Positions 42,471-43,879 of a DNA stretch of 48,363 bases are shown here, in pieces. The DNA lies in NCBI GenBank assembly GCA_964536885.1, contig CAZHYP010000001.1, positions 1 to 48,363 on the forward strand. Direction: 5' to 3'. The notes beneath the pieces are model-generated. The model was not told where the DNA came from, searched no databases, and worked only from the letters and a program-made list of their open reading frames with translations. The stretch's first letter is position 1, and each line of letters begins with the position of its first letter. The DNA is from an uncultured Gammaproteobacteria bacterium. GTDB taxonomy: Bacteria; Patescibacteriota; Patescibacteriia; Patescibacteriales; UBA12465. The position numbers and the translations under genes were made by a program.

Positions 42471-43007
42471 TTATTTTATAGTACTTTTTATTTTTTTATA
42501 TAAAAATATTAAATCTCCAAGAATAAAAATAAAATCTTTTTTAAAAGCAAAATAATATGATGATAAACAGAAAAATATATCCGTCGTTACGCCAGTATAT
42601 TCATGTTTTGCAATAGCACTTCCAGTTATTATTGATAAGTAAATTATAACAATAAATACTAAAAATCTAATGTTTTTTTCATAATTATCTAAATAATTTA
42701 TTTTTTTAATAGATAAAAAACTACCAATTGAAAAAAGATTTGAGATTATGTTGAATTTTTTAGCTATTTCTCTAGAAGCCAACACAAAAATATAACCACC
42801 AAAAGCTCCGAACAACACCTCTTGGATACTAAATAGATTTTTAATACTATAGTAGTTTTTTATAATCTCCGTTTCTGTAGGAATTAACTCTGGATATAAA
42901 ATGATAATTAATAAAGTTAAAATAGATCTAACTATGACTGATAAAAATAAAGAAAATAGTAAAACAAAAGTCCAAAAAAATATAAATTTAATAATATTTT
43001 TTTTCAT
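42471..43007 (-). CDS. Hypothetical protein with about 5 TM helices
   Basis: 178 aa. Very AT-rich coding sequence. Its start overlaps the end of the NERD gene by 20 nt. Confidence 0.55.
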   Translation of the reverse strand: MKKNIIKFIFFWTFVLLFSLFLSVIVRSILTLLIIILYPELIPTETEIIKNYYSIKNLFSIQEVLFGAFGGYIFVLASREIAKKFNIISNLFSIGSFLSIKKINYLDNYEKNIRFLVFIVIIYLSIITGSAIAKHEYTGVTTDIFFCLSSYYFAFKKDFIFILGDLIFLYKKIKSTIK

Positions 43008-43740
43008 AATTTTTAATTTTAATTAATAAATTACTAATTTTATTTATTTCTTCTAAACTTAACCTAGCATCATATTCTTTTATATATTTACAAACCTCAT
43101 CACCATCTAAAATACAAACTTTATTATTTAAAAGACATTCTATTTTACCATCATCTTTTAGTGGTCTAGCGACTAATCCTTGTGCCCAAATTTTAATATT
43201 TAAATTATTTTTAATTATCTTATTTATCCAGGCAGCGTTTCTAGAAACTTGTCTTATAGCTTTATACCCAAAATCACTCATTTGTCTGCTGCCATTTTTG
43301 TAATAAAAAATAGGATTACTAATATTACTCTTAGTTTCAACTATAAATAAACCTGTTGGGCCAATAACCACATGATCAATATTCTCTTTATTTTTACCCT
43401 TAGAAATATCGTTAATTAACTTAAAATGATCGCCAAGAGTGGTTAATTTAGCTACTGTTAAGTCTTCAGCGATACTTCCAATACCATAACTATATTCGTT
43501 TTTTAATATTTTTTTTCCGAAAAAATTTCCAACCGTATATAATAAACCTAAAACAACTAAAAATATTGCAATAAAATAATAGTTGTGGCCAGAAAATAAA
43601 GACCAGATAGCAAAGAAACAACTTATAATAATTAAAACTATAAAAACATATAAAGGCGCCGCATAAAGATTATATCTCCTGTTATATTCCTTCTCTACCT
43701 GAGTAGGACCAGAGCCGTATTTAAATAGTTCTTTGAGCAT
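42988..43740 (-). CDS. NERD (nuclease-related domain) protein with an N-terminal two-TM anchor
   Basis: IDHVVIGPTGLFIVETKS is the hallmark NERD motif. Confidence 0.75.
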   Translation of the reverse strand: MLKELFKYGSGPTQVEKEYNRRYNLYAAPLYVFIVLIIISCFFAIWSLFSGHNYYFIAIFLVVLGLLYTVGNFFGKKILKNEYSYGIGSIAEDLTVAKLTTLGDHFKLINDISKGKNKENIDHVVIGPTGLFIVETKSNISNPIFYYKNGSRQMSDFGYKAIRQVSRNAAWINKIIKNNLNIKIWAQGLVARPLKDDGKIECLLNNKVCILDGDEVCKYIKEYDARLSLEEINKISNLLIKIKNYEKKYY

Positions 43741-43879
43741 TTGTTTCTTTTTTATAAAGAAATTCTTTTTTTAAAATTAATTCTGTTAAATTAATAATAT
43801 CACCATAACACGACTTCAATAACTCCCTTTCAACAAAATTATTATGTTCTTTTATTTTTAAATAGATATCTCGCCTCAT
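43721..43879 (-). CDS. Possible 52-aa leader ORF overlapping the NERD gene start
   Basis: MRRDIYLKIKEHNNFVERELLKSCYGDIINLTELILKKEFLYKKETNAQRTI. A TATAAT box lies at 43906-43911 on the minus strand, upstream. Support is weak. Confidence 0.25.
   Translation of the reverse strand: MRRDIYLKIKEHNNFVERELLKSCYGDIINLTELILKKEFLYKKETNAQRTI

Follow-up and report, generated by a model that had tools for sequence, protein, structure and literature searches.

Does a membrane-anchored NERD protein encoded beside restriction genes work with the hydrophobic protein whose gene overlaps its 3′ end, or does it work alone? This question is raised by contig CAZHYP010000001.1 of assembly GCA_964536885.1, deposited for an uncultured Gammaproteobacteria bacterium and placed by GTDB in the Patescibacteriota (UBA12465). 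The whole stretch analysed, 48,363 nucleotides (nt), is hereafter called the window. Its NERD gene (42988..43740, minus strand) encodes a protein of 250 amino acids (aa), with a hairpin of two transmembrane (TM) helices followed by a NERD domain. An earlier note on this DNA had paired this gene with a 178-aa hydrophobic open reading frame (ORF), orf178 (42471..43007, minus strand), as a two-gene cassette in an AT-rich patch. NERD, a large domain family that is almost uncharacterised experimentally, is a branch of the PD-(D/E)xK phosphodiesterase superfamily (Pfam PF08378; Grynberg & Godzik 2004). Our results favour another answer. The gene probably encodes a solitary, membrane-tethered NERD nuclease with a role in defence or exclusion. 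We hold the structural and solitary-gene part of this reading to be highly probable; a defence function, taken by itself, is a closer call that falls slightly short of even.

A NERD protein with conserved catalytic residues

The 250-aa protein matched the Pfam NERD profile (PF08378) with an E-value of 3.5e-11 and 44 bits against a cutoff of 22.1, over residues 88–190 and profile positions 2–108 of 111, and it contains the motif IDHVVIGPTGLFIVETKS. A hydropathy scan placed two hydrophobic helices at the N terminus, at approximately residues 28–50 and 56–75. Both results agree with the earlier description of a protein with two N-terminal TM helices and a NERD core.

Searching 5.8 billion protein clusters, we found 17 close homologues of 229–254 aa sharing 39–89% identity, beyond which extended a tail of distant NERD proteins. 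A precomputed PF08378 match was present in all 17. Across the 18 aligned sequences, E92, D111, K114, H123, G127-P-T-G130, E135, K137, N139, Q164, N168, W171, R192 and P193 were invariant, and D122 was kept in at least 90%. The PD-(D/E)xK motif set (E92, D122, E135-x-K137 and Q164) is intact. We conclude that the gene is real, that it carries a NERD domain and that its catalytic residues are conserved.

The AlphaFold2 model computed from the family alignment (predicted local distance difference test, pLDDT, 81; predicted template modelling score, pTM, 0.74) shows long helices at residues 14–50 and 55–100 followed by an alpha/beta core, a predicted fold that is restriction-endonuclease-like. E92 lies on helix 55–100 as it runs into the core, D122 on strand 121–127 and E135-x-K137 on strand 130–136; on the model, the motifs therefore follow the canonical PD-(D/E)xK order. 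The top matches of a Foldseek search against the PDB were exclusively PD-(D/E)xK nucleases, namely Can2/Card1, Bax1, the Shedu nuclease domain, R2 endonuclease and Hjc. A sequence search of the PDB with the family profile gave nothing significant. The protein is thus a predicted nuclease.

The distribution of positive charges bears on its orientation in the membrane. Lysine and arginine together averaged 4.2 in the N-terminal tail across the family and 0.3 in the five-residue loop between the helices, and a KK or KR pair follows the second helix. By the positive-inside rule, this distribution points to an N-in/C-in hairpin, which would place the catalytic domain in the cytoplasm.

The architecture extends well beyond the close family. 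Scans of GTDB species representatives and JGI metagenomes recovered hundreds of more distant relatives from many bacterial and archaeal phyla, the closest named genomes being a Candidatus Parcubacteria metagenome-assembled genome (MAG; 65% identity) and Gammaproteobacteria MAGs (40–47%). Fifty loci were sampled, yielding 48 NERD ORFs, and 47 of these had at least one hydrophobic N-terminal segment. TM-plus-NERD is thus a widespread architecture in both bacteria and archaea.

Absence of a conserved partner

The earlier proposal was that NERD and orf178 form a two-gene defence or abortive-infection cassette, translationally coupled through their overlap, in which orf178 would serve as sensor, pore or immunity partner. 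Several features speak for it. The genes lie on the same strand, both within the AT-rich patch, and their coordinates confirm the 20-nt overlap. The frame of orf178 is open far beyond chance: none of 2000 shuffles reached 178 codons (maximum 135), there are no internal stops compared with 7–25 in the other five frames, and the analytic probability of an open frame is about 2.6e-8 per start. A functional link would be possible in this one genome.

The protein encoded by orf178 has three segments above the Kyte–Doolittle threshold, the first long enough for two helices, as well as weaker ones. Its single-sequence AlphaFold2 model has seven helices (pLDDT 56, pTM 0.30) and is of low confidence and uninformative. 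Given these segments and this model, the earlier estimate of about five TM helices was fair. The amino acid composition (I 18.5%, F 12.4%, L 11.8%, K 9.6%) is close to that predicted from the base composition of the coding strand. Because the amino acids follow T- and A-rich DNA in this way, the TM-like appearance of orf178 is largely compositional. GC content at codon position 1 (GC1) is below that at position 2 (GC2), about 4 standard deviations under the window mean, and the purine bias at codon position 1 (0.61) is gene-like. Since the frame is clearly maintained, orf178 may be a real young gene.

To find relatives of orf178, both a word-indexed search of the 5.8 billion clusters and an exhaustive HMMER search of 1.84 billion representatives were used, and each returned only orf178 itself. 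No Pfam, PADLOC or NCBIfam model matched it. We conclude that orf178 is a lineage-specific ORFan found in this genome alone and that it is no conserved partner of NERD.

We compared eleven distinct loci with NERD homologues (39–89% identity), and the gene 3′ of NERD was another one at each of them. In the closest relative (locus L001, 89% NERD identity) it encodes an unrelated soluble protein of 173 aa, followed by DUF2779, and in L002 (72%) DUF2779 follows NERD directly, ahead of an intact S49 peptidase gene. A convergent pentapeptide-repeat gene occupies this position in L095 (74%), acidic ORFs of 61 and 132 aa in L004 (65%), a 125-aa ORF in L007 (47%), a convergent racemase gene in L009 (43%), a 229-aa lipoprotein-like ORF in L010 (40%) and a Pyr_excise gene (113 aa) in L094 (39%). 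Other small, unrelated genes stand there in L092 (42%) and L093 (40%). No polytopic gene was found downstream of NERD among the close-family neighbours scanned, and among the 48 broader NERD loci an ORF with at least three TM segments was downstream in two. In the window, orf178 fills a variable slot between the NERD and S49 genes where relatives carry DUF2779 or unrelated genes. We also considered orf178 as a decayed copy of DUF2779 or of another neighbour, and rejected this because the neighbours from L001 and L002, used as tblastn queries, had no match in the window.

A partner might also stand elsewhere than directly downstream. We therefore clustered all ORFs within 3 kilobases (kb) of NERD at 165 loci, representing 137 distinct NERD groups. 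No neighbour family occurred in more than 7 of the 137 groups, and none held a fixed position. The recurrent families were LexA-like (7 groups), HD_4 and MGMT-like DNA_binding_1 (5 each), and DUF4357, Fic, HsdM and HNH (4 each).

DUF4357, which is RAMA-like and associated with restriction and methylase genes, is the most position-specific of these neighbours and is still rare. Its gene ends 16–36 nt upstream of NERD in L001 (2–403), in L002 (3427–4260; duplicated as L003) and in L055, and 779 nt upstream in L128; L001, L002, L055 and L128 represent four distinct NERD groups.

Homology between loci is limited to the NERD gene itself. In a blastn comparison of the window with L001, 88% identity was confined to 43740–42993, and alignments of five loci lost similarity directly before the ATG at one end and some 10 codons short of the NERD stop at the other. 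Because homology ends there, the start codon of orf178 and the 20-nt overlap are window-specific sequence. For the same reason no attC-like element travels with the NERD gene, and an integron cassette was ruled out.

These results make the two-gene cassette very improbable. Against it stand the lack of orf178 homologues in either search, the unrelated soluble gene downstream in the closest relative, the direct junction of NERD and DUF2779 in L002 with no gene between, a clustering that yields no partner, an overlap restricted to the window, and a composition of orf178 that matches neutral expectation for the local DNA. The earlier note had itself named a failure of the two genes to co-occur in other genomes as evidence against the pair, and we saw no such co-occurrence. 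In very AT-rich DNA, an overlapping, hydrophobic ORF can pass for an operon partner, and co-occurrence should be checked before such a pair is called a system.

Defence setting and possible function

The patch is located in a genuine defence island. Read as they are transcribed, the genes are ordered SduA – DUF4145 – HsdR – orf64 – (orf52) – NERD – orf178 – S49 peptidase. The first gene, of which only the C-terminal part falls inside the window, encodes a Shedu SduA (DUF4263) nuclease (48080..48361, minus strand; best PADLOC SduA E-value 1.9e-6, 11 models matched). It is followed by a DUF4145 protein gene (47232..48071, minus strand), whose Pfam match is just under the cutoff (E 2.4e-4, 21.5 bits versus 23.1) and which overlaps the hsdR start by 4 nt. 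The hsdR gene (44149..47235, minus strand) encodes a type I restriction enzyme R subunit of 1028 aa (Pfam HSDR_N, SWI2_SNF2 and T1RH-like_C, E-values down to 9.5e-125; PADLOC REase_I, 1132 bits) and is immediately upstream of the patch ORFs. The earlier description of the patch as adjoining an hsdR cluster therefore stands for hsdR itself. It does not stand for a complete set, as hsdM and hsdS are absent from the window and the cluster consists of the Shedu fragment, DUF4145 and hsdR. Either hsdR has been separated from its partners by embedded genes or it is an orphan.

Known defence genes are found within a few kb of NERD here and, in a qualitative comparison, around its homologues. L095 has a type I hsdR from another subfamily (EcoR124_C) two genes upstream of NERD, in the order hsdR, 246-aa gene, NERD. 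The surroundings of L002 include an EcoRI-type methylase, a type II restriction endonuclease/GmrSD-like gene (PADLOC REase_II, E 4e-85) and DUF4357, and those of L004 a DpnII restriction–modification system plus an insertion sequence element. L092 has a SIR2-like PDC-S21 gene (E 5.8e-90), Bro-N, HNH and a second NERD paralogue. The remaining loci have RelB/YafQ (L093), Mrr, PemK and Macro (L094), HerA (L009), Fic and an AEP-helicase (L010), and an integrase, Rep and a DUF4145 gene (L007). With SduA, DUF4145 and HsdR in the window, and restriction–modification, GmrSD, SIR2/PDC-S21, Mrr, toxin–antitoxin, HerA and integrase/Rep genes around homologues, the proposed defence-island setting is borne out.

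Two further observations concern these islands. The two TM-NERD paralogues on the L092 contig (3852–4616 and 8574–9290) are about 4 kb apart. A PEP-utilizers-domain gene stands no more than a few genes behind each of them, suggesting that the segment was duplicated. Pyr_excise, a T4 endonuclease V-like pyrimidine-dimer glycosylase, is encoded directly downstream of NERD in L094 (6745–7086) and a few genes downstream in L007 (8619–9023), while Macro-domain genes flank NERD in L094 and L001; together they may represent a recurrent DNA-repair or ADP-ribose theme.

In the reading we favour, the 250-aa protein would be a solitary NERD-type PD-(D/E)xK nuclease, a single-gene unit with no obligate partner, encoded on the margin of a defence island of variable content, which in the window is Shedu – DUF4145 – HsdR. 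The N-in/C-in two-helix hairpin would anchor it in the cytoplasmic membrane with the catalytic domain facing the cytoplasm. Its most likely role there would be in innate immunity or exclusion, through the cutting of DNA on the inner side of the membrane. Its target could be incoming phage or plasmid DNA, or it could be a self-destructive effector once triggered.

Comparison with characterised proteins places it within the NERD family, whose Pfam cutoff it exceeds and with which it shares the E / D / ExK / Q motif set and a predicted alpha/beta core. It is also mostly a single-domain protein, as described for NERD proteins (PMC9040797). It differs in belonging to a distinct small subfamily that has a fixed two-TM hairpin and no NCBIfam or PADLOC match. 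According to published work, NERD domains are enriched in defence islands and include a validated effector, that of HEC-02 (an ABC ATPase plus NERD); they are also found in Mokosh type I, Nhi-like and Pgl systems (bioRxiv 10.1101/2024.01.29.577857; PMC9226505). The window protein shares the nuclease domain class and the defence-island location with HEC-02, Mokosh type I and Nhi-like systems, in which the domain serves as a defence effector. Their proteins, however, are soluble and either pair with an ATPase, helicase or kinase or are fused to one, whereas the window protein has TM helices. No ATPase or helicase partner is adjacent to the window NERD gene, none is conserved among the 137 groups, and the PADLOC models of those systems gave no match.

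Shedu (SduA, DUF4263) offers a closer parallel in organisation, as a single-gene PD-(D/E)xK nuclease with a variable N-terminal region, and a Shedu fragment lies in the same island. The Shedu nuclease domain (8ti9) was among the top Foldseek matches with a probability of 0.97, but the E-value of 9e-3 is weak and template modelling scores (TM-scores) were 0.31–0.42. The window protein belongs to the NERD Pfam family and not to DUF4263, and PADLOC gave no SduA match for it.

Several points weigh against a defence nuclease. Both the nuclease activity and the defence role of this NERD subfamily rest on inference. Foldseek probabilities reached 0.97, but the E-values were weak (3.9e-3 or worse, none reaching 1e-3). 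The protein has no NCBIfam match and no PADLOC match at E ≤ 0.1, and therefore falls in no catalogued defence system. No relative was found among IMG/VR viral contigs, which leaves no direct phage link. Some of the recurrent neighbours are DNA-repair or regulatory genes (MGMT-like, LexA-like and Pyr_excise). The arrangement NERD–(x)–S49 is common to the window and L002, which suggests that the NERD gene can reside stably in a genome instead of moving as cargo. Lastly, SmdA of Staphylococcus aureus, the best-studied TM-NERD protein, is a factor of cell division and not of defence (PMC9040797).

SmdA is also the model for an alternative in which TM-NERD proteins link DNA to the envelope in a housekeeping role, such as division, chromosome handling, DNA uptake or repair, and defence neighbours are incidental. 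Division in S. aureus requires SmdA, which combines a single TM helix with a cytoplasmic NERD-like domain (PMC9040797; PMC12272431). The N-terminal membrane anchor and cytoplasmic NERD-like domain are common to both proteins, and the very wide distribution of TM-NERD architecture would fit a general function. So would the conserved gene orders, NERD–S49 in the window and L002 and DUF4357–NERD–(x)–DUF2779 in L001 and L002, and the recurrence of repair and regulatory neighbours (MGMT-like in 5 groups, LexA-like in 7, Pyr_excise in L094 and L007).

The differences from SmdA are nevertheless marked. SmdA, a 302-aa factor of cell morphology and division, is conserved in a single family, and its gene is monocistronic in housekeeping surroundings; its authors note that several of the best-conserved NERD residues are missing from it (PMC9040797). 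The window protein has two TM helices, 250 aa and all catalytic residues, and its relatives are patchy and located in defence islands or mobile elements, which sets it apart from SmdA as described. A conserved, syntenic housekeeping distribution was not found in the window family, which is patchy across phyla with variable flanks. The close family is rare, with about 25 proteins in the 5.8 billion clusters, from Parcubacteria and Gammaproteobacteria MAGs, and its flanks differ at nearly every locus. Moreover, the NERD gene is more AT-rich than its flanks, and so than host DNA, in 10 of 11 other loci, L092 has two paralogues, and the L007 copy is within an integrase/Rep element. We consider the housekeeping alternative unlikely. 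From the shared gene orders, the NERD gene appears to reside fairly stably beside a variable slot and does not look like a hopping cassette.

What is new here is the subfamily of TM-anchored NERD proteins; the defence-island context was already anticipated in the literature on NERD domains. TM-anchored single-gene NERD proteins are common, yet absent from PADLOC. One broader idea, which we advance tentatively and think rather less than likely, is that TM-NERD proteins, including the two-TM subfamily, are unrecognised stand-alone single-gene immune nucleases that cut entering foreign DNA at the inner membrane face. If so, they may be especially relevant in small-genome, Patescibacteria-like organisms with few known defences, in which the NERD gene would be positioned repeatedly at the 3′ flank of restriction–modification modules. 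On that view, orf178 would be a membrane gene of recent, possibly de novo, origin that arose in the AT-rich DNA of the island. The window locus and its relatives provide consistent circumstantial evidence of a solitary NERD subfamily in defence islands, which makes the gene a candidate that a plaque or transformation assay could examine cheaply.

The AT-rich patch and its edges

The earlier note had called the patch the most AT-rich coding DNA in the window, and the GC profile agrees. The lowest 1.5-kb GC content was 0.231, at 42301, against a window mean of 0.352 (standard deviation 0.032; z = −3.8), and the lowest value outside the patch was 0.285. Among the 30 minus-strand ORFs of at least 150 aa, orf178 was the most AT-rich (GC 0.203) and NERD the third (0.262). 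The patch is a compositional outlier.

At its downstream edge lies a gene for an S49/NfeD1b-type membrane peptidase (41427..42462, minus strand; Pfam Peptidase_S49, E 3.9e-30), which is split. One fragment of 97 aa (42169–42462, minus strand) contains the TM anchor and aligns to residues 23–101 of the intact 320-aa L002 homologue; the other, of 242 aa (41427–42155, minus strand), contains the catalytic part and aligns to residues 98–320. The fragments are in different frames. The break, at about 42155–42171, falls beside an A6 run, right where the patch ends. The gene may truly be split or a pseudogene, or the break may have come from recombination or from faulty assembly. When we looked for the boundaries of a mobile element, the DNA around the patch gave low-complexity AT matches but no direct or inverted repeat that was meaningful, and there were no Rfam matches.

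An outlier with such an edge could be decaying or junk DNA, or an assembly chimera, in which case orf178 and two shorter ORFs, orf52 and orf64, would not be genes and NERD might be heading towards inactivation. The peptidase gene broken exactly at the patch edge is consistent with this, as are the chance lengths of orf52 and orf64 and, for orf178, the GC1 value below GC2, the composition-driven amino acids and the lack of homologues. The NERD ORF, in contrast, is full length with every conserved residue intact. The open frame of orf178, set against the 7–25 stops of the alternative frames, argues for selection or a very recent origin, and its purine bias at codon position 1 is gene-like. Decay or a chimera thus appears quite improbable as an account of the whole patch, and a functional NERD gene remains the reading we prefer.

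Of the shorter ORFs, orf52 (43721..43879, minus strand), taken from the ORF list, is present and overlaps the NERD 5′ end by 20 nt, as had been suggested. Its standing as a gene fared less well: stop-free runs of at least 52 codons occurred in 95% of shuffles, no Pfam, PADLOC or NCBIfam model matched, and it is not conserved in relatives, in all of which the DNA upstream of the NERD ATG is unrelated. It is probably not a gene. The status of orf64 (43953..44147, minus strand), which starts 1 nt after the hsdR stop codon and encodes 64 aa with two strong TM helices, is uncertain. Its length is within chance (stop-free runs of at least 64 codons in 60% of shuffles), and its only matches were below threshold (Cap15_TM, E 0.0025; Ecr small membrane protein, E 0.006). 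In L095, the slot between hsdR and NERD holds the 246-aa protein, which has N-terminal TM helices; it shows no similarity to orf64 and is not its homologue.

A promoter-like sequence matching at 10 of 12 positions (ATGATA-18-TATAAT) lies at 43935–43906, upstream of orf52 and NERD. Such sites were no commoner than in shuffles, and no terminators were found. None of the window genes examined has a Shine–Dalgarno motif, so this signal is uninformative for gene calling here. No tRNA genes were found in the 48-kb window.

The window as a whole is chromosomal DNA, with genes including those for TyrRS, GlmS, a P-type ATPase, malic enzyme and a SpoU methylase, and the minus strand carries about 45 of its 49 ORFs of at least 90 aa. 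With a Parcubacteria MAG as the closest named relative of the NERD gene, the source may be a small, Patescibacteria-like genome. Base composition is mosaic: the highest GC content in the window (0.48) belongs to a 146-aa ORF without a family match (40807–41247, minus strand), only about 1 kb away from the AT-rich patch. A second AT-rich ORF, of 153 aa and GC 0.26, is located at 6406–6867 on the minus strand.

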